DNA of 64,000 bases from Phycisphaerae bacterium (GTDB lineage: Bacteria > Planctomycetota > Phycisphaerae > UBA1845 > Fen-1342), in assembly GCA_050115495.1 (NCBI GenBank), contig JASFQK010000021.1, positions 1 to 64,000 of the forward strand, in the 5' to 3' direction. A model generated the notes under the pieces. The model was not told the DNA's origin. It saw nothing but the letters and a program-made list of their open reading frames with translations, and ran no database searches. Positions 22,432 through 30,907 of this stretch are shown in pieces (position 1 is the stretch's first letter; each line of letters begins with the position of its first letter). The translations under genes were made by a program, and so were the position numbers.

Positions 22432-22515
22432 CGCACACACCATCCGCCGCACCGGGATCGCAGTCTTGAATCGGCAGTCTCAACACTCCGCTCGACGGGC
22501 GCGATCCGCCGCCGC

Positions 22516-22637
22516 CGCCTCTCTGCCTCTTTGCCTCTTTGCCTTTCCTGCCTCGTTGCCTGGTTGCCTCGTTGCCTGGCTACCCCGAGGACAGTCGAAG
22601 GGGCCGCCTCTTTGCCTTCCTGCCTCGTTGCCTTCTT
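22516..22637. repeat. Degenerate 8-mer tandem repeat (ttgcctc-like) in divergent promoter region
   Basis: gcctctct gcctcttt gcctcttt ... gcctcgtt gcctggtt gcctcgtt in two blocks. Confidence 0.7.
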
Positions 22638-22680: not shown

Positions 22681-23580
22681 ATGGCACGCGTCAAAAGGTC
22701 CTCCGATCGGCGTCGGCACTGCTTCGGCGCGCACCTGTCCGTCGCCGGCGGGCTGCACCTCGCGATCGTCCGGGCCCGCGAGATCGGCTTCGACACCGTC
22801 CAGGTCTTCGTGAAGAACCAGCGGCAGTGGCAGGCCCCGCCGCTCGACCCCGACGAGCAGGCCCGCTGGCTCGATGCCCTCGCCGCCGGCGATTTCGGCC
22901 CGCCCATCGCCCACGCGTCGTACCTGGTCAACCTCGCGTCGCCGAACCGGACACTGCTCGCCCGCAGCCGGGCGGCGTTCGCCGACGAATTGCAGCGCTG
23001 CGACGCCCTGCGCATTCCGTGGCTCGTCGTGCACCCCGGGTCGGCGACGGGCTCCTCGCCGACGGCGGCCCTCGCTCGCGTCGCCCGCACGCTCAACCGT
23101 ATCTTCGACCGGCTACCGGGCCTGCACACCGGCGTACTGCTCGAAACCACCGCCGGCCAGGGTACGTCCCTCGGGCGCAGTTTCGCGGAATTGGGCGAGA
23201 TTCTGGCACATGTCGAACAGCCCGACCGCGTCGGCGTCTGCCTCGACACCTGCCACCTCTTCGCCGCCGGCTACGACCTGCGCGAACCGTCGGCCTATTC
23301 GGCGATGGTCGCCGAAGCCGACCGGGAAGTCGGGCTCGGGCGGGTGCGGTGCTGGCATTTGAATGACTGCAAGGGTGCGTGCGGCTCGCACCTCGACCGC
23401 CACGACCACATCGGCCGCGGCCAGATCGGCAACCGCGGCTTCACCAACCTGCTCACCGACCCCCGCTTCGCCGGCGTTCCCATGATCCTCGAAACGCCCA
23501 AAGGCGAAACCCCCGCCGGCCGCGACTTCGACGCGCTGAACCTGTCCCGCCTGCGGCGATTGGCGAAGCAAGCGAGGTGA
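22681..23580 (+). CDS. nfo: Endonuclease IV (AP endonuclease)
   Basis: GAHLSVAGG, HASYLVNLAS, VHPG, LETTAGQG, CLDTCH, HLND, DRHDHIG.G, ILETP. Confidence 0.95.
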   Translation: MARVKRSSDRRRHCFGAHLSVAGGLHLAIVRAREIGFDTVQVFVKNQRQWQAPPLDPDEQARWLDALAAGDFGPPIAHASYLVNLASPNRTLLARSRAAFADELQRCDALRIPWLVVHPGSATGSSPTAALARVARTLNRIFDRLPGLHTGVLLETTAGQGTSLGRSFAELGEILAHVEQPDRVGVCLDTCHLFAAGYDLREPSAYSAMVAEADREVGLGRVRCWHLNDCKGACGSHLDRHDHIGRGQIGNRGFTNLLTDPRFAGVPMILETPKGETPAGRDFDALNLSRLRRLAKQAR

Positions 23581-23592
23581 GAGAAACGCGCG

Positions 23593-23664
23593 TAGCGGCC
23601 GGTCTCCGTACCAAACGTGTAGCGCCGGCCCCCCGTGGCCGACGTCTTCGCGAAGCCGTCAGCC
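23593..23664 (+). repeat. Outer inverted repeat, left copy (72 bp, REP-based)
   Basis: Reverse complement of 29169-29240 with 2 mismatches. Confidence 0.9.
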
Positions 23665-23713
23665 ATCAGCCGTCAGCCGTCAGCAAGAAGCCATGAGCCG
23701 TGAGCCGTGAGCC
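23657..23713. repeat. 7-mer tandem repeats (cgtcagc / gtgagcc)
   Basis: cgtcagc catcagc cgtcagc cgtcagc ... atgagcc gtgagcc gtgagcc. Confidence 0.7.
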
Positions 23714-23751
23714 GGAGCAGTCGTTTCCCGGCCTACGGCGCCGCTCCGACT

Positions 23752-24040
23752 GCTGGTGTCTCTTCGCCGCGGAACCCGCCCCGTCTCTCGCGTCGCCGCG
23801 TTCGTTCGCCAGTGTGGCACCTGCCAATGGCTGGTGATTCCCACCGCCGTGAAGCAACCGTATGGTTTCGTCACCTGTTCCACTGCTCCACGGTTCACCT
23901 GCTCTCGCGCAGCGCAGCCCGCGCAGCGGGCGACGGACTCTAGCCCCGGGTGAGCGATCGGCCGCCCGCCGGCCGATCGCGCAACCCGGGGTCAACGCCC
24001 ACCCCCTGCCCCCCCAAGCCCCCGAAGGGGGCGGCGGAAA
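23752..24040 (+). repeat. Inner long inverted repeat, left copy (~290 bp)
   Basis: Colinear with the reverse complement of 26583-26867, including a perfect 38-nt block 23915-23952 / 26667-26704. Confidence 0.9.
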
Positions 24041-24310
24041 GAGCTGCCGTAGCGTCTCCCGGCGCGCAGCGCAACCCCTGGCGCAATCGCTCCCCCGACC
24101 TTGCCTCCGCGCAGCGCTTGCCAGATGTCACGATCGGCGTGACCCGCTATAATGCCAAGTTGTGTTCTGTGCCCGCTCATTTGCGTGGCTTGCTCAGTCC
24201 TCTATGCGGGGTGAACTCGCAGCGCATGCATGTGGGCGCTGCCCGTGCAGAACGAAGGTCACGGCGAGAGGTGACAGCACGAGACTCCTCCCCCACGGAG
24301 GCAGCGCACG

Positions 24311-24844
24311 ATGATCCCATGGCTCGCCACGTTCTTTGCCGGGGGTGCCGCGTACAACTCGGTGGTGCTCGTCATCAGCGTGCTTGGAGTTGCGCTCGGC
24401 GCCTGGGCGCTTTGTTTGGCCTACGGGCAATTGAAACGTGTCGAACTCGCGTCAACCGCGGCAAAGGATGCTGCCGAGGGTGCGCGAGCGCGCCTTCAGG
24501 CAGTAAGTAGCCTGGTCGATCTCAACGAACTCGCAGCCCATGCCCGCGAATTGAGCTTCGCGTTGCGCACGGGCGATATCCAGGCCGCCGCGTTTCGAGC
24601 GTTTGACTCGCGGTCGGCAGTGAGAAGGGCGCGCGTGCAGTGCGTACGATCGGACGGGAGCGGCGACAGACAATGGCAGGAGTTGGTCGGCAGGATCGTC
24701 AGCCTGCACGAGGCGCTACAGAAAAGCACCTGCTCCAAGAACGCTCCCCTTGACCACGGACGAGTGACCAAGCTGGCGAACAAACTGGCGGACACGCTGG
24801 GCGACTTCGTTGCCAAGGCAGCCCAGAAGCTCGGAGAGAACTGA
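24311..24844 (+). CDS. Hypothetical membrane-anchored helical protein
   Basis: RBS ggagg; N-terminal TM helix; TGATG overlap with next gene. Confidence 0.65.
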   Translation: MIPWLATFFAGGAAYNSVVLVISVLGVALGAWALCLAYGQLKRVELASTAAKDAAEGARARLQAVSSLVDLNELAAHARELSFALRTGDIQAAAFRAFDSRSAVRRARVQCVRSDGSGDRQWQELVGRIVSLHEALQKSTCSKNAPLDHGRVTKLANKLADTLGDFVAKAAQKLGEN

Positions 24845-25179
24845 TGGCGATAAGAGACGACCTGAAGGGTTTTGTCGAAATGGTTCGTCGCTCGACCGAC
24901 GAGGGCCGGATACCGTGGCAGGAGGGGGCCTCTGACGACGAATTCCTTGCTGGCATGAGTGGCGGCTCCCTTAGCATCATCCGATGGAGGAATCATGACG
25001 ACGATTCCGACATGTACCGCCTCTCGATCTTGAATGCGGAAGGCAAGTTGGCGGACACCGTCGTCTCCAGCGATTGGCTGGCGGGATACGCCACACTGAA
25101 GGCGATACTCGATGGCGCTCGCCGAACAGCCCGCAACGCAGACGATGTAATGCGCCAGATGATGGAAGACTTGAAGTAG
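24844..25179 (+). CDS. Hypothetical protein (111 aa)
   Basis: Translationally coupled; RBS ggag; globular composition. Confidence 0.7.
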   Translation: MAIRDDLKGFVEMVRRSTDEGRIPWQEGASDDEFLAGMSGGSLSIIRWRNHDDDSDMYRLSILNAEGKLADTVVSSDWLAGYATLKAILDGARRTARNADDVMRQMMEDLK

Positions 25180-25331
25180 GCCACGCTAGTTCCGCTTGCC
25201 AGCCGCGCGAGGCAGTACGTGCTGAGGCTGCCGTAGACCGACAAAGACGTGTGGCACGCGAATCGCCGTTCACGATCGACACTGCTTGCCGTGGCGATGA
25301 AACCGCAGCAGCTCACGGAGGAGAGACGACA

Positions 25332-26498
25332 ATGTCTGTGGCACAGAAACCCGCTGTATTCGTGAGCTCGACATGCTACGACCTCAAGCAAGTTCGCGAG
25401 AACCTGCGTGAGTTCATCGCGGGGGCCGGCTACGATCCGATGTTGTCGGAGCACGACTCGTTTCCCGTGGATCCCTCCACCGACGTGATCGAGAACTGCC
25501 GCAAGGCAGTTGGCGCACATGCCGACATCTTTGTGCTAATCGTGGGGAACCGACACGGATCGGTCGCAGAGTGCGGGCGCTCAATCACGAACATCGAGTA
25601 TCTCGCCGCACGCGCCAGGGGGCTCCCCATCTATGTATTCGTGCTGCGCTCCGTGCTTGACGCTTTCCGCACCTGGAAGAAGGCCCCTGAAAACCGGTTC
25701 CCCGACATCGAGTCGCCCGAAGTCTTTGAGTTCATTGACTCAGTCCAGTCGGCAGGCCACGCGTGGATTCGCCCGTTTGACACTGCTCAGGACATAACAG
25801 GGGCGTTGCGCCGCCAGTGGGCTCATCTGTTCTGCGAGTGCCTGCACCTCTGGACAAAATCCAACGACAGCCCGCTTGAGGGATTACCCACAGACATCAG
25901 CCTCGGAGCGTGGCGGCTGAGCATCGAGCGCCCACGTGCGTGGGAGATCCGGCTGCTCGATCGTGTGTTGCGCGATAAATTGACCGAAGCGCAGGAGGCG
26001 AAGTGGGACCTCCAGAATGGTCTCTCGCTCGGTCCCCGGCAACGTCAAGAACGAAAGCAGGTCATGGATTGGGTCATGACGCAGTTCGCGGAGCTCGTGG
26101 ACACGGTGCGCGCACTGGACAAGCTACTGAACACCACATGGCCAGAAGCGGCCGCGGCTGGCAATCCCCGGAAGATCATCTATGTCGCCAAGCGGGTGGG
26201 TGACATCTACCGGACGGCGATCGACTGGTCCCTGCAGTTCCGGAGAGTCCACGTCGATGATGACTTCCGCCGGCTGCTTGGCACCGCCTCCCGGGCGTCG
26301 TGCAGTTGCGTCGACGTGATCGAAGCTCTGAGCACGCAGATTTCTCATGCCGTGAAGCAAACTCTCGACACTCCAATCAAGGAGGGCGAGACTGTGAGTC
26401 CGACGATCAGGGTACGGCTGGATTTTCCGGCTGGCCTGATGGAGGAACTTGAAGAGGAAACAGTGCGCGTGGCCGCGCTGGGTTGCAACGAACCCTGA
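25332..26498 (+). CDS. DUF4062 domain-containing protein with unknown helical C-terminal domain
   Basis: VFVSSTCYDLKQVRE.L, C...V...ADIFVLIVG.RHGS, SITNIEY..A; RBS ggagg. Confidence 0.8.
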   Translation: MSVAQKPAVFVSSTCYDLKQVRENLREFIAGAGYDPMLSEHDSFPVDPSTDVIENCRKAVGAHADIFVLIVGNRHGSVAECGRSITNIEYLAARARGLPIYVFVLRSVLDAFRTWKKAPENRFPDIESPEVFEFIDSVQSAGHAWIRPFDTAQDITGALRRQWAHLFCECLHLWTKSNDSPLEGLPTDISLGAWRLSIERPRAWEIRLLDRVLRDKLTEAQEAKWDLQNGLSLGPRQRQERKQVMDWVMTQFAELVDTVRALDKLLNTTWPEAAAAGNPRKIIYVAKRVGDIYRTAIDWSLQFRRVHVDDDFRRLLGTASRASCSCVDVIEALSTQISHAVKQTLDTPIKEGETVSPTIRVRLDFPAGLMEELEEETVRVAALGCNEP

Positions 26499-26582
26499 AG
26501 GGGCCATCTGGGATCGGCTGGCAGAAGAGGAGATTCCCCGCGTTCGACGGCCGACACGGGGGGTCGGCTGCTACACGCTTCC

Positions 26583-26867
26583 TTCCTCCGCCCCCTTCGG
26601 GGGCTTGGGGGTGAGGGCGGGACGGGTCCCCGGGTTGCGCTGGCCCGCTCAGCGCGGGCGGCGCTGCACCCGGGGCTAGAGTCCGTCGCCCGCTGCGCGG
26701 GCTGTGCTGCGCGGGAGCAGGTGAACCGTGGAGCAGGTGAGCAGGTGACGCAACCGTGCGGCTGCTCCACGGCGGGTGGGACCACCAGCCATTGGCAGGT
26801 GCCACACCAGGGAACAAAGGCGGCGACGCGAGAGACGGGGCGGGTTCCGTGGCGAAGAGACACCAGC
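26583..26867 (-). repeat. Inner long inverted repeat, right copy
   Basis: Reverse complement of 23752-24040. Confidence 0.9.
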
Positions 26868-26900
26868 GATCGGGGCAGGGTCGCAGGCTGGAATCCACAG

Positions 26901-26968
26901 GTGGGGCGGGCCGTGCCCGCCGGGTGCGCTCGGATGAATCCGCGACTGGCGGGCGCGGCCCGCCCTAC
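26901..26968. repeat. REP inverted doublet
   Basis: gtggggcgggccgtgcccgcc ... ggcgggcgcggcccgccctac. Confidence 0.7.
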
Positions 26969-27687
26969 GTGTGTCCGTTCTCACGTTTGTGGCGTGTCGG
27001 TTTCTCGGCAGAGGTGGGCGCTGGGGCAGGTTGTCGCCGGGGCAGGAGGGTGGCGAGGAGGCGGGAGAGCCAGGAGCGTGGCGGCGGCTGGGGGTGGTTG
27101 GCGGGGTGTGGTGGCGGTTGGCGGCCGTTCTGCTTCCAGATCGTGTAACGCTGTGTGAAGTGCTGGCCGACGATGAAGACGATTCGCCGAGCCAGGCGGG
27201 TCCAGGCGTCGTCGGTTACGCCGTAGTGGCTGCCCCTGGCGCTGGCCATGCTGTAGACGTATTGCAGGAGATCGTTTTCGTCGATGTCGATGAAGCCGGC
27301 GTCCATCAAGCAGCGACGGTGCGTGCGAAACGTGTTGCCGCTCTGGATGCGTTCGCGGAGGCTAAGACTGGTGCTATCGATCACGTCGCGGCGGATGGTG
27401 CAGGCGATGCTGACGATGAGAGCTTCGAGGGCGGAACGGGCCTCGTTGATGGCGGCGTGTCCGTAGCCGTCGGCGGCGGTGGCGTCGGATTGGTGGAGGT
27501 GGTAGGCCATCGTTCGCAGGTCGAGTTCGGGGTGTGGTTGGAGGTCGTGGAGCAACGCCGTCAGGGCGAAGGTGCCCGTTTCGGTCGGCGTAGGACCGGG
27601 CGTTTCCGGCGTGGCACCGCCGGCGGGCACGGCCCGCCCTGCAGTGGCTTCGGCGAACGCGTCAGGTTCCATGTAACCCTCGTTCAC
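26965..27687 (-). CDS. Hypothetical protein, HEPN/Abi-C-like helical domain
   Basis: GTG start overlapping upstream TGA (GTGA) with RBS gaggt; AAINEARSALEAL...Y.MAS.RGSH pattern reminiscent of HEPN-fold proteins. Confidence 0.55.
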   Translation of the reverse strand: MNEGYMEPDAFAEATAGRAVPAGGATPETPGPTPTETGTFALTALLHDLQPHPELDLRTMAYHLHQSDATAADGYGHAAINEARSALEALIVSIACTIRRDVIDSTSLSLRERIQSGNTFRTHRRCLMDAGFIDIDENDLLQYVYSMASARGSHYGVTDDAWTRLARRIVFIVGQHFTQRYTIWKQNGRQPPPHPANHPQPPPRSWLSRLLATLLPRRQPAPAPTSAEKPTRHKRENGHT

Positions 27688-28052
27688 CTCGGTGACCTCT
27701 TCCGAGTTGTGGACCGAGTGCCGGCACTCGGTTTGGGCTTGCCGGCCGGCTTCTCTTTGCGCGCCGTCGCCGCGCGCCGCCGCCGGCGGTGACACTGCTT
27801 GACGCGCTCCATGGCCGGGGCGTTGAGCAGGAGGCCGAGGCATTCGGCGATGATGCTGAAGAGCGTGTCGCGGTTGGCCTCTTGCAGCGTGCGTTCGAGG
27901 TGGGCAGGCAATTCGTGGTAACGCAGCCCCTCGTCTCCGATGACCTCTGTAAGGGCAATCAGGGCGCCGATGAAGCGTTTGTCGCTGAGCGGCAGGGCCT
28001 TCCACATCGCCCGAAACGCCTCTTCGTCCAGCTTCGGCGTCTTGGCCATCAC
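27684..28052 (-). CDS. Hypothetical protein (122 aa, basic C-terminal tail)
   Basis: RBS aaggag; helical; coupled to downstream gene. Confidence 0.65.
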   Translation of the reverse strand: MMAKTPKLDEEAFRAMWKALPLSDKRFIGALIALTEVIGDEGLRYHELPAHLERTLQEANRDTLFSIIAECLGLLLNAPAMERVKQCHRRRRRAATARKEKPAGKPKPSAGTRSTTRKRSPR

Positions 28053-28137
28053 GCGTTCTCCTTCCTACTGTCGGACGCCAATGTGCAGGGATGGCGACGC
28101 CGTTGGAGACGGCGGAACGTCGAAAGCTGATGGCACC

Positions 28138-28330
28138 AAAAGGAAACGGGCGCCACCCGATGCGCTAAAGGTCGCGTATGGGCCGTCAAGCCAACCGCGC
28201 GACCCCGCGCACCGGGCAGCGCCCGCATGATAAGCGCGGACACTGACGCGGGCGAGGCTGCTTGGCTGAGTTGGCACACGTAGCGCCCGTACCACGGGCG
28301 TGCAGACACGTGTGTTGACGGCCCATACAC
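28138..28330 (-). ncRNA. Structured leader RNA resembling phage C4/CI antisense-attenuator elements
   Basis: 19-bp stem closed by G-U pairs only on the minus strand, bulge, 7-bp stem, U-rich tail; apical sequence is complementary over 14 nt to 28315-28328. Confidence 0.55.
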
Positions 28331-28464
28331 CAAGGCGTATTTTGCCAGCGGCGGATCACTCTTCTTGCCGCTGCTTGGCTGTGTGGATCGGCGGCCGGTC
28401 GAGAGCCGGCTCCGGATCATCGCTCTTTGGATAGTGTCGCACATGGATGGGCGAAAGTCAATGG

Positions 28465-28487
28465 AAAGTGATTATATAAGTCACTTT
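28465..28487. promoter_or_regulatory. Palindromic operator between divergent genes
   Basis: aaagtga-N9-tcacttt, AT-rich, 20 bp upstream of the HTH gene. Confidence 0.6.
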
Positions 28488-28507
28488 TTGTTTCTTCAGG
28501 ATCACTA

Positions 28508-28786
28508 ATGATTATCCTCAAACTCCGAGAGGCCATGGAGAGATACCGGCGAAGGACAGGCAAGCGCATGACGTATGAGCGCTTGGCAGAGCTTACAGGC
28601 ATCGCAAGAGGGACGTTACATCAGATGGGCAGGCGCCTGGATTATCATCCGACGCTCACCAACGTGGAGAAGTTGTGCGCTGCCCTGGAGAGCCCGCTCG
28701 ATGGAATGATCGAGATCGTTCCGGACCCGCCGAAGCCCAAGCCGAAGCGCCAGGCGAAGAGCCCCAAAGCCGCGAAGCGGCGATAG
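28508..28786 (+). CDS. Cro/CI-type XRE helix-turn-helix regulator
   Basis: MTYERLAELTGIARGTLHQM...PTLTNVEKLCAAL. Confidence 0.85.
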   Translation: MIILKLREAMERYRRRTGKRMTYERLAELTGIARGTLHQMGRRLDYHPTLTNVEKLCAALESPLDGMIEIVPDPPKPKPKRQAKSPKAAKRR

Positions 28787-29168
28787 TCAATAGCCCGGCG
28801 GCGTAAGCCCCGGGTACCCGTCCATAACCACTCCAATTCAGAGCCGCAGCGGGGCGACAGACTTCCCTATCGCCCCGCTGGGGCTCAATGAGGGGTACGT
28901 GGGTCTCGGTCCAAGGGCTCACACCCTTGGCTACTGACTGCCGCCGCGTTGCGGCGAGGAGCGCGGAGGCTGCGACGCGGCGATAGTCTTGCAGGCCGAG
29001 CCGTGCCCGCCGGCGGGTGGGTGCCGGGGGAATTGGCGGGAACGACCCGCCCCACGCGTCTCGCCAAGACGTCCGGCATCCCGGCGCGCCGGGCGACGGC
29101 GCCGGTCCCGTGGCGAACGAAAGACATGCCGGCGCCTTAGAGCTTCGGCATGCCACACGCCAGCTCAA
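28787..29168. repeat. BIME-like cluster of REP hairpins
   Basis: tagcccggcggcgtaagccccggg; cagcggggcga/tcgccccgctg; ccaagggctcacacccttgg; gccgtgcccgcc/ggcgggaacgacccgccccac; gacatgccgg..cggcatgccacac. Confidence 0.7.
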
Positions 29169-29240
29169 GGCTGACGGCTTCGCGAAGACGTCGGCCACGG
29201 GGGGCCGGCGCTACACGTCCGGTACGGAGACCGGCCGCTA
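29169..29240 (-). repeat. Outer inverted repeat, right copy (72 bp)
   Basis: Reverse complement of 23593-23664 with 2 mismatches. Confidence 0.9.
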
Positions 29241-29258: not shown

Positions 29259-29300
29259 CACACTCATAGTGTGTAGACAGTATTACCACTAATGAGTGTG
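29259..29300. promoter_or_regulatory. C-box-like operator
   Basis: cacactcat...atgagtgtg inverted repeat containing ACTCATAGTG-TGTA-GAC, 8 bp upstream of the HTH start. Confidence 0.6.
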
Positions 29301-29308
29301 CTGTCAAG

Positions 29309-29524
29309 GTGAAATCGCGATTGGATATCAAAGTCGAAGTTGGCGCGCGTGTGCGTGAGCTGCGCGAGGCCCGAGGGTGGTCCCAGGAAGAACTTGGCCA
29401 ACGCAGCGACCTTCACCGGAATTACATTGGCGGTCTTGAGCGCGGCGAGCGCAACGTTGGCATAGAGACGATCGCCAAGCTAGCTCGTGCTCTTCACGTT
29501 CGCCCTCGCGAGCTCCTACCGTAG
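29309..29524 (+). CDS. XRE HTH protein resembling restriction-modification controller (C) proteins
   Basis: G.RVRELR...GWSQEELG..S.LHRNYIGGLERGERNV....I.KLARAL. Confidence 0.8.
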   Translation: MKSRLDIKVEVGARVRELREARGWSQEELGQRSDLHRNYIGGLERGERNVGIETIAKLARALHVRPRELLP

Positions 29525-29619
29525 CGACGTCAGCCAGGAAACTCTGCATCCCCCCCCACCATTACCCCGCATCGAAGAAGTGTGTTCGCCCGGAAGCTTC
29601 GCCGGCACCGCCCGCCCAA

Positions 29620-29679
29620 GACGGCCGGCACGGAGACCGGCCGCTACGAAGGACGTCCGACACGGAGGTCGGACGCTAC
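29620..29679. repeat. Two GTAG REP hairpins
   Basis: cggccggcacggagaccggccgctac and gacgtccgacacggaggtcggacgctac, identical to copies at ~15429 and ~13947. Confidence 0.8.
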
Positions 29680-30833
29680 TGCGCGGCGTTCGACTGGGCA
29701 ATCTCGGCGTTGCGGCGCCACATGGCGGGGCGGGCGCGGCGGGTGGCGGAGTCGCGGGTGAGGCGTCGCCAGGAGCCGGCGCGGAGTTGGGTGAGGTCCG
29801 CTAGCGCCAGGCGGGCGGGGACAAGATCCGCCAGAAGGTGCGCATTCGTGCCAGCCGGCGCGCGACGGTTGTAGGGGCAGACGTTCTGGCACGCGTCACA
29901 GCCGAAGACCCACGTGCCCATTCGCCGGGCGAGGTCGGGGTCGATCGCGTCGCGGTGCTCGATCGTGAGGTAGCTGATGCACCGGCGGGCGTCCAGCGTG
30001 GTCGGAGCACGGGTCGACGTGCCGTCGCGTCGCCGCCAGGTCGGAAGACACTGCTCAAGAGCAGTGCCACACTCAGACGTACCCCCCGGACTGCAATGCT
30101 CGGAAGCAGCAGCACCCTCGGCGGTCGCTGGCGGCGGCAGCAACGCCGCCGTCGGGCACGCGTTCACGCATCGGCGGCAGTGGCCACAGCCGTTGGGGAG
30201 GGGCTTGTCGGGGGCGAGGTCGAGGGTGGTGAGGAGTTCGCCAAGGAGGAGGTGCGAGCCGAGCGTCGGGTGCACGAGGCAGGTGTTGCGCCCGATCCAG
30301 CCGAGTCCGGCCCGGGCGGCGAGCTCGCGTTCGAGGATCGGGGCGGCGTCGACGCAGGGTCGCCACTCGAACGCCTCGCCGAGACGATCGCGTAGCAGTC
30401 CCGCCAGCGCCTCGAGCATTCGTCCGATAACCACATGATAGTCCCGCCCGCGGGCGTACATGGCGATGTCGCCGGCCGGAACGCCGGGATTTGAGATTTG
30501 AGATCTCAGATTTGAGATTCCGCCAAGCGTGGGCGTGTCGCCGGGCTGAGGCGGATGGGCCGACGTGAGACCTGACACCCCGTCATTCGGCAGGCGGTGG
30601 CAGCTCAGGGCGACGCAGATGATCGACCGGGCCCCGGGGAGCAGCCGGGACGGCTCCCGGCGCATCGGGACGTGCCGGGCCAGGTAGGCCATCGTGCCGC
30701 CATAGCCGGCGGCGAGCCATTGCCTATAATACTCCGCGGTTTGCGAGGGACTGACATCTGTAACGCCCACCAGGTCGAATCCGGCGTCGTGACCCGCCTG
30801 TTTCACGACCTGGGCTCTGGTGACGGGCGTCAT
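29676..30833 (-). CDS. queG: tRNA epoxyqueuosine(34) reductase, with two in-frame insertions
   Basis: G.M.YL, YARGRDYH, VD.APILER.LA..AGLGWIGRN, CG.C..C...CPT, DARRCISYLTIEH, FGCD.CQ.VCPYN. Confidence 0.9.
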   Translation of the reverse strand: MTPVTRAQVVKQAGHDAGFDLVGVTDVSPSQTAEYYRQWLAAGYGGTMAYLARHVPMRREPSRLLPGARSIICVALSCHRLPNDGVSGLTSAHPPQPGDTPTLGGISNLRSQISNPGVPAGDIAMYARGRDYHVVIGRMLEALAGLLRDRLGEAFEWRPCVDAAPILERELAARAGLGWIGRNTCLVHPTLGSHLLLGELLTTLDLAPDKPLPNGCGHCRRCVNACPTAALLPPPATAEGAAASEHCSPGGTSECGTALEQCLPTWRRRDGTSTRAPTTLDARRCISYLTIEHRDAIDPDLARRMGTWVFGCDACQNVCPYNRRAPAGTNAHLLADLVPARLALADLTQLRAGSWRRLTRDSATRRARPAMWRRNAEIAQSNAAQ

Positions 30834-30907
30834 GTTGGTCGATGATACTGGGGTCACGAACGCTGGGCCAACCGATGCCAGAAGCGGAAGGCAGCCGGAG
30901 CAGTTTC

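Follow-up and report, generated by a model that had tools for sequence, protein, structure and literature searches.

Inverted REP mosaics and a candidate copy-specific RNA attenuator at the nfo-queG junction of a Phycisphaerae genome

The stretch of DNA analysed here (the window) is the first 64,000 nucleotides of contig JASFQK010000021.1 (G000:C21:1-64000) from a Phycisphaerae bacterium, whose assembly comprises 5.97 Mb in 85 contigs. Between the core genes nfo and queG, the window carries two nested pairs of inverted arms built from repetitive extragenic palindromes (REPs), a three-gene cassette inside the inner pair and, beside it, a multicopy module consisting of a helix-turn-helix (HTH) gene, a non-coding leader and two further genes. 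On balance, we read this interval as a stack of accessory units lying between inverted REP mosaics that were probably copied locally, with a predicted copy-specific RNA attenuator in one of the units. The features of the junction are as follows; the parts of the leader are listed further below.

22681-23580, plus strand: nfo (endonuclease IV family), left core flank; Pfam AP_endonuc_2, E 3e-52; maf-nfo order kept in many relatives
23593-23664, plus strand: outer left arm, two GTAG-type REPs and an 18-nt tail into 7-mer tandem repeats
23752-23860, plus strand: inner left arm part A, a ~60-nt non-palindromic spacer and a GTGG REP; 14 full copies in the genome
23909-24042, plus strand: inner left arm part B, corresponding to the left half of a palindromic unit family of ~320 bp found around the Y1 gene on contig C14
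24311-24844, plus strand: 177-aa orphan gene, hydrophobic N terminus; its sole match among 412 candidates is itself
24844-25179, plus strand: 111-aa gene, no family match
25332-26498, plus strand: 388-aa DUF4062-domain protein; Pfam E 3e-19; sporadic cross-phylum family
26580-26867, minus strand: inner right arm, mirror of part B plus part A
26965-27672, minus strand: multicopy 235-aa protein of predicted HEPN/Abi_C fold
27684-28052, minus strand: 121/122-aa helical protein, first gene behind the leader; one diverged family across copies
28465-28487, no strand: AT-rich palindrome with 7-bp arms upstream of the HTH gene, presumably operator-like
28508-28786, plus strand: 92-aa Cro/C1-type HTH gene (HTH92), divergent from the leader; Pfam HTH_26; 10 paralog matches
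28768-28956, no strand: two inverted Acido-Lenti-1 matches in a REP-like palindrome; Rfam 43.2 and 38.2 bits, gathering threshold 37
29169-29240, minus strand: outer right arm
29309-29524, plus strand: 71-aa XRE/C-protein-like HTH gene (HTH71), beyond the outer pair
29610-29680, minus strand: GTAG REP cluster at the queG 3' end
29676-30857, minus strand: queG, right core flank; Pfam QueG_DUF1730 and Fer4_16

An earlier note, made from the sequence alone, had described an accessory island between nfo and queG that was bounded by the two arm pairs and free of transposase and integrase genes. The island does lie between nfo and queG, and no transposase or integrase was found by Pfam among 15 open reading frames (ORFs) scanned in and around the interval; the arms are not its bounds, as the HTH gene at 29309-29524 and the REPs at 29610-29680 lie outside both pairs. 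The 72-bp outer pair with its 2 mismatches was recovered exactly (23593-23664 / 29169-29240; 70 of 72 positions identical, 97.2%; 78 nt at 95% when extended), and so was the ~290-bp pair nested inside it (23752-24040 / 26583-26867; 85.6% identity over 292 columns; 84% over the extended 23728-24042 / 26580-26891). The inner arms are spaced by ~2.5 kb and the outer arms by ~5.5 kb, with passenger genes enclosed. Both pairs are REP mosaics, as the note had it, and the inner arms share a non-palindromic, non-REP spacer (92.9% over 85 nt in arm A); the outer arms are GTAG-REP doublets, except that the terminal REP of the right arm starts ATAG. No target-site duplication was seen by inspection at either pair; such a duplication is not expected of Y1 elements.

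The note had argued that its reading of the arms would fall if scattered copies resembled them as closely as the partners resemble each other. Copies are indeed scattered, the outer arms having 194 and 244 BLAST matches genome-wide (self counted), but the partners remain closest by a narrow margin: in the whole assembly each pair consists of reciprocal best matches. For an outer arm, the best match other than the partner reaches 94% over 54 nt, and the 47-nt unit made of its second REP and tail occurs at only these two places when up to 2 mismatches are allowed. Over a shared length of 193 nt, identity between the inner arms is 90.2%, versus 86.5% to a copy on contig C19.

It is hardly credible that the nesting is a mis-assembly across repeats. 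Such an error is conceivable in that 19 of 170 contig ends carry parts of the module or arms, and no single read-derived contig spans the interval; however, the inner arms differ by ~15%, unitigs match the unique parts of the interval with 0 differences and at even depth (21.3, 20.1, 13.9, 17.8 and 18.2; cassette 20.1, flanks 21.3 and 18.2, in assembled contigs only), and the flanks agree with the gene order in relative G005. Programmed or frequent inversion between the arms, giving phase variation of defence genes, also seems very unlikely to us. Perfect runs of 50 and 38 bp join the arms, and the cassette unitig ends inside these runs, so that its orientation is not fixed by these contigs. 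Against inversion, there is no recombinase nearby, the promoter-like site at 24125-24153 lies inside the inner pair and would thus not be switched, a comparable pair on contig C7 is un-inverted relative to its relatives, and no strand-change joint is present among the 15 of 51 joints shown.

The arms belong to a dense genomic background. One REP unit has 131 copies within 2 mismatches, and the genome holds 375 REP clusters, 327 of which have a neighbour within 20 kb. Thirty-one of these 327 find their best match in such a neighbour, versus 2.5 expected; these are counts of clusters, 19 paired directly and 12 inversely, with the window's own counted and at least one coding false cluster among them. 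At convergent gene pairs, GTAG REPs lie in the sense of the nearer gene 102:30 (by our own gene caller), and inward-facing arrays are therefore expected at nfo-queG. There are eleven intergenic pairs that are reciprocal, inverted and spaced within 10 kb; of the 43 genes between their arms, 7 are low in G+C (p=0.19, not significant). Inverted matches on C17, C4:148498, C48 and C55 were not taken as REP pairs; those on C17, C4:148498 and C55 appear to be coding or non-REP.

The pair on C7 serves as a control. Its 185-bp arms enclose xerD-like and dsbD core genes in a block that is collinear and un-inverted, with both flanks present in G005 and the left flank in G007 and G004, indicating that paired arms arise around genes that have not moved; by themselves, then, paired REP arms are no evidence of mobility. 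Another pair, on C14, encloses ribH-nusB-ftsY. We note a further arrangement on C7: near-identical segments of ~250 bp follow the HEPN-fold gene at C7:62045-62499 and C36:222-789, and they are framed by GTAG doublets that face outward (95% over 66 nt; 90% over 74 nt). The C7 first gene drew nothing above 0.82 in the atlas. C77:1-5128 is a small contig with 6 genes whose two ends form a perfect 126-bp inverted pair; this may reflect a transposon or a feature of the assembly.

The window's arms probably arose as REP mosaics copied locally, at a hot spot between convergent genes. A convergent junction would accumulate inward-facing REP arrays, each REP lying in the sense of the gene it follows, and local copying, or incoming DNA that splits a palindromic array, could leave two ends that are mutually best matches. 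Nicking by Y1 proteins at REPs may open the entry point, in which case the arms need not travel with the cargo.

The earlier note had instead suggested that the arms may be ends of a non-autonomous cargo element. In its present form, this idea holds that the inner, perhaps also the outer, arms resemble REPtrons or TIRtrons in which passengers replace the Y1 gene and which one of six Y1 proteins mobilises in trans; we consider it doubtful, although several observations agree with it. The note had proposed a search for REP-associated tyrosine transposase (Y1_Tnp) genes, and the genome does contain six, four of which carry Y---Q--HH. Part B, which makes up the inner half of the inner arms, is drawn from a palindrome family that also stands on either side of the C14 Y1 gene; this ~320-bp palindrome occurs unsplit at 5 places, and the cassette occupies its symmetry centre. 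A second Y1 gene, on C11, lies within a 98-bp inverted pair. No Y1 gene was found in the interval between the inverted arms, and none of the six was identified as dedicated to the outer GTAG family. Elsewhere in the genome, two near-identical subclass-1.2-like Y1 genes with a repeat family of their own stand at different loci (C26:38142 and C52:25895), suggesting recent movement of that gene.

The copies of arm A bear on whether the arms pair around different cargo. Two inward pairs exist, that of the window and one on C3 around an NB-ARC-TPR gene (rough chance expectation ~0.03 such pairs), and in 11 of the 13 copies whose downstream DNA could be measured, arm A points towards DNA of lower G+C. 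On the other hand, 10 of the 14 full copies have no partner in their own contig (6 of these face a contig end within 3.7 kb), and none of the 8 overlaps obtained by contig-end linking brings an arm-A copy together with a partner. Judging from the alignment, the two C3 arms are not mutual closest relatives, and no empty site for that pair was found in 4 relatives. With 4 candidates scored in each, none of 200 further genomes of the order contained arm A in full length.

The nfo-queG junction itself could be compared in 2 of 30 relatives searched that have both genes within 10 kb. An empty site, which the earlier note had proposed to look for, is present in G005, where less than 160 bp separate the nfo stop from the queG tblastn match and no repeats occur; G005 is a distant relative, and the breakpoints are not resolvable. 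In G001, the junction holds 6.6 kb of unrelated genes without a long inverted repeat. Tandem repeats were also seen in intergenic gaps of the window (an 8-mer at 22506-22634, a 7-mer at 23654-23709), and in G001 an 8-mer array stands where nfo ends, at its 3' side (L033:8028-8134).

The three-gene cassette between the inner arms is as the note described, and its G+C content is 0.607 versus 0.70 for nfo and queG. It has no second copy in the genome and no full-length match in 300 genomes of the class. The 177-aa and 111-aa genes match nothing in Pfam, PADLOC, NCBIfam or PHROG, and across the cargo and module genes PADLOC, NCBIfam and PHROG gave no informative family beyond HTH and DUF4062-type matches. 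The DUF4062 protein has 255 homologs, 41 of which were scanned without a PADLOC model match; at 80 homolog loci examined, spread over many phyla, the 177-aa and 111-aa genes are always absent. Three of these 80 loci are bracketed by inverted repeats and 77 are not (63 loci have at least 1.5 kb on both flanks). In two strong cases, L153:131-3717 (deltaproteobacterial) and L215:1-1539 (Rhodoferax), long arms of unrelated sequence (186 nt at 90%; 90 nt at 98%) surround low-GC DUF4062 cassettes, a number for which there is no base rate. Sparse RNA-run pieces over the cassette (depth 2-3) and the small-share runs X2-X4 were not used as evidence of expression or habitat.

As ends of a cargo element, then, the arms have the empty site, the Y1 genes and the C3 pair in their favour. 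Set against these are the single-copy cassette, the local best-match pairing throughout the genome in both orientations, the equally good pair around unmoved core genes on C7, the lack of significant enrichment for low-GC genes and four complete module copies elsewhere that have no matching long arms around them. In addition, TnpA-REP cleaves REP in single-stranded form but leaves its inverse uncut, and the way in which REPs disseminate is described as unresolved (PMC8266576). Our literature searches found no description of REP-bracketed cargo, and we met no report of cargo mobilisation in them or in that source.

The repeats are new members of the already known REP/BIME class (BIME, bacterial interspersed mosaic element). 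As in REP/BIME/REPIN systems with Y1 proteins (PMC3733652, PMC3116915, PMC8266576 and PMC6006769), GTAG/GTGG hairpins occur here in extragenic, high-copy mosaic clusters. The same sources describe Y1 genes flanked by long inverted repeats (PMC3733652) as well as near-identical local REP arrays and REPIN excision (PMC3116915); the genome resembles the REPtrons and TIRtrons portrayed there in its Y1 genes between inverted copies, its dispersed gene-less palindromic units and its locally near-identical arrays. Unlike in those elements, the arms in the window enclose passenger genes and not a Y1 gene. Y---Q--HH is the signature of Y1 subclass 1.2 (PMC6006769, section 18), and Y---NP that of class 2 TnpA-REP; the C14 Y1 gene flanked by part B carries the former, not the latter.

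The second part of our reading concerns the module at 26965-28786. The earlier note had counted its genes among those of the accessory island, but they are not unique cargo: the module recurs across the genome, with a small DNA-binding gene on one side and, divergently, the non-coding leader, a helical gene of 110-230 aa and the 235-aa gene. On the minus strand, the leader is predicted to fold into a stem, P1 (9 bp), and a hairpin of 20 and 7 bp with a U-rich tract behind it; a further helix, of 13 bp, joins the P1 loop to the hairpin loop, whose complementary site is ~140 nt upstream of it. The parts are as follows.

28138-28145, minus strand: U-rich tract after the hairpin, terminator-like
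28146-28226, minus strand: main hairpin, 20-bp and 7-bp stems, G.U pairs valid on the minus strand
28177-28189, minus strand: variable 13-mer of the loop, forming the 3' side of the copy-specific helix
28259-28266, minus strand: stem P1, 3' strand
28315-28327, minus strand: upstream 13-mer complementary to the loop; starts a plus-strand -35-like hexamer (promoter match 28315-28343)
28329-28335, minus strand: stem P1, 5' strand

Thirty-one leaders were aligned (42 rows minus 11 opposite-strand hairpin echoes). Across 49 pairs, 96.3% of cells are paired, and two-sided changes occur in 24 of the 49; none of 500 shuffles scored as high and slid controls gave 35-43%, although the excess is partly built in, because the structure was drawn from these same sequences. 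In the long-range helix, 11 of the 13 pairs are compensatory. The strand is indicated by the ratio of G.U to A.C, which on the minus strand stands at 156:2 for the hairpin, 21:7 for the long-range helix and 28:13 for P1. Ten held-out copies were aligned with a model lacking the long-range helix; 8 of them form a cognate helix of 9-14 bp, and the cognate mean is 10.2 versus 6.0 (1 of 200000 permutations). These patterns of covariation indicate that the leader is very probably a structured, single-stranded element. All 15 copies in the window's genome have distinct 13-mers. In the nested minimum free energy fold of the window leader, the long-range helix replaces the hairpin, which suggests alternative states.

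The complementary 13-mers could also be a pair at the level of DNA, that is, duplicated operators or -35 boxes of divergent promoters, served by their own regulator in each copy and standing beside an ordinary terminator. Their conserved core is -35-like, a plus-strand promoter match occurs there in the window, and each copy does have its own regulator. Nevertheless, we judge this quite improbable: G.U exceeds A.C by 21:7 on one strand, the core hexamer itself varies with compensation, regulators of different types (HTH_26, HTH_3 and types without a Pfam match) stand beside the same leader, and a separate operator-like palindrome is available at 28465-28487. No operator palindrome common to the copies was found upstream of their regulators.

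The preferred reading, a structured RNA, brings to mind attenuators of phage and plasmid origin. The P4 CI RNA pairs with two sites, seqA upstream and seqC downstream, and so terminates transcription (PMC4825925). The leader resembles the P4 immunity region and the IsrK locus of that account in that an untranslated leader hairpin is complementary to an upstream site in the same transcript and precedes a terminator and small, possibly toxic genes. The likeness is to the upstream (seqA) half: no covarying seqC-like target was evident in alignments reaching 15 columns past the hairpin. The P1/P7 c4 antisense RNA is Rfam RF01695 (PMC2864571, Table 1), and here the leader differs, having no Rfam match and no c4 match even at E<=10. 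It differs from both P4 and c4 in its surroundings, with no integrase, transposase, phage or replication genes among 63 neighbouring ORFs (many copies are cut by contig ends) and no exact motif match in viral contigs (0), and in the presence of 15 differently coded copies in one chromosome. In the attenuators of plasmids pT181 and pIP501, a long-range antiterminator pairing competes with the terminator, the loop sequence sets specificity and the antisense RNA is a counter-transcript. The leader shares the alternative pairing, whereas it has no rep gene and carries its complement on the same strand.

By analogy with these systems, we tentatively regard the leader as a CI-like, copy-specific attenuator. 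A minus-strand transcript would form P1 and the 27-bp hairpin and end at the U-tract ~90 nt ahead of the first gene. The upstream 13-mer of the nascent RNA could capture the hairpin loop in cis and permit read-through, whereas terminated RNA with the same loop could block the upstream site in trans, in its own copy only, and so enforce termination, in the manner of P4 CI RNA. This scheme would predict brief expression of the two downstream genes upon entry into a new cell, or once the RNA pool drops, and the leader likely keeps the predicted HEPN-fold gene switched off. As far as our searches of the literature and Rfam reach, the leader and its module are new as a form of antisense attenuation; we found no description of the leader, which may be contained in the supplementary motif sets of PMC2864571 and bioRxiv 10.64898/2026.10.21.760802.

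Beyond the 15 copies in the window's genome, covariance-model matches number 10 in G426, 12 in G398 (2 opposite-strand echoes removed) and 1 each in G407 and G412. By BLASTN, 4 of 200 other genomes of the order have a substantial match; 4 metagenomic contigs carry the leader, and with strict filters the model found none in 149 other genomes sampled across the phylum. The type of divergent regulator changes from copy to copy while the leader is retained. Module neighbours include DUF4062-TPR (twice), NB-ARC-TPR and AbiTii genes, to which G426 adds DarT and NB-ARC; one neighbour protein in G412 carries HTH_28/32 domains. All 3 DUF4062 genes and 1 of 3 NB-ARC genes of the window's genome lie within 2.6 kb of a leader; the regions up to 3 kb from a leader make up 1.2% of the assembly.

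Several individual loci deserve mention. G000:C51:119-2800 (L038) is a tandem HTH-leader-HTH-leader array in which the 13-mers differ. At L072 (G426:C21), where the host genome belongs to a different family, the upstream 13-mer matches that of the window copy exactly and the HTH protein is 82% identical, which hints at horizontal spread of the module. HTH71, beyond the outer pair, has homologs at the module loci G426:C74 and L094 (76% and 72%), the 76%-identical one serving as module regulator in G426, and so may be a remnant of a second module; upstream of it lie an inverted operator-like repeat (29259-29300) and a minus-strand sigma-70 match (29307-29279). Finally, the position of the inverted Acido-Lenti-1 matches inside a REP-like palindrome suggests that the Rfam family could represent a DNA repeat associated with Y1 and not a small RNA.

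The 235-aa protein (101 homologs, itself counted) had no Pfam match in 69 members. Its structure model (predicted local distance difference test score 82.7) contains a helical bundle at residues 34-183. HEPN domains dominate the top ranks in Foldseek, mostly HEPN folds come out on top in VIA-align (Z 9.3, root mean square deviation [rmsd] 3.2, 127 aligned; Z 9.2, rmsd 4.7, 120 aligned), and the atlas gives Abi_C at 0.89. A HEPN fold is thus predicted consistently across methods, below confident thresholds. The protein is like HEPN/Abi_C proteins (HepS, 9oik; AF0298, 2hsb; Pfam PF14355) in its predicted helical bundle and unlike them in its lack of Pfam matches and in the residues of the motif. 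HEPN RNases share the catalytic motif R-x4-6-H. H149 hardly varies; just 3 residues ahead of it, at position 146, the window protein has Arg and the consensus Lys, and the expected Arg position is taken by a conserved Ala143-Ser144 before G-S-H, so that the motif is not clearly present and RNase activity, as far as these residues tell, is uncertain.

A number of results weigh against our reading and are gathered here. For the fold, the Foldseek E values are 0.2 or more and the HEPN Z scores of ~9 are below the 13 advised for helical bundles. For the attenuator, 2 of the 10 held-out copies have no long-range helix, and in the training set non-cognate 13-mers pair at 10.3 of 13 positions on average versus 11.9 for cognate ones, some as high as cognate, so that insulation between copies would be incomplete. 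No sigma-70 promoter was found for the minus-strand leader, and a -35-like hexamer of the divergent gene shares positions with the upstream 13-mer, although a full -35/-10 match was seen in only 1 of 15 copies. The RNA-run contig piece over the leader has 20 differences and thus comes from another leader copy. For the arms, the 97% identity of the outer pair and the brackets at C3, L153 and L215 fit ends of an element. Finally, our reading leaves the spread of the module without explanation.

A bolder reading would join the two parts, although we think it unlikely as a whole. The Phycisphaerae modules would be transposase-free, each of the 15 copies silencing its own HEPN-fold gene by means of a hypervariable, P4-CI-like 13-nt address, and would ride with, or nucleate, REP-bounded defence islets (DUF4062, NB-ARC-TPR, AbiTii, DarT) inserted by host Y1 proteins at palindromic REP arrays. 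Apart from this bolder reading, a natural set of 15 RNA attenuators that look orthogonal within a single genome would reveal how the specificity of antisense RNAs diversifies so that copies can coexist, and the leader would offer a compact programmable switch. The close association of the modules with polar REP arms and defence-like genes provides a testable handle on whether REP/Y1 systems capture or move foreign genes.

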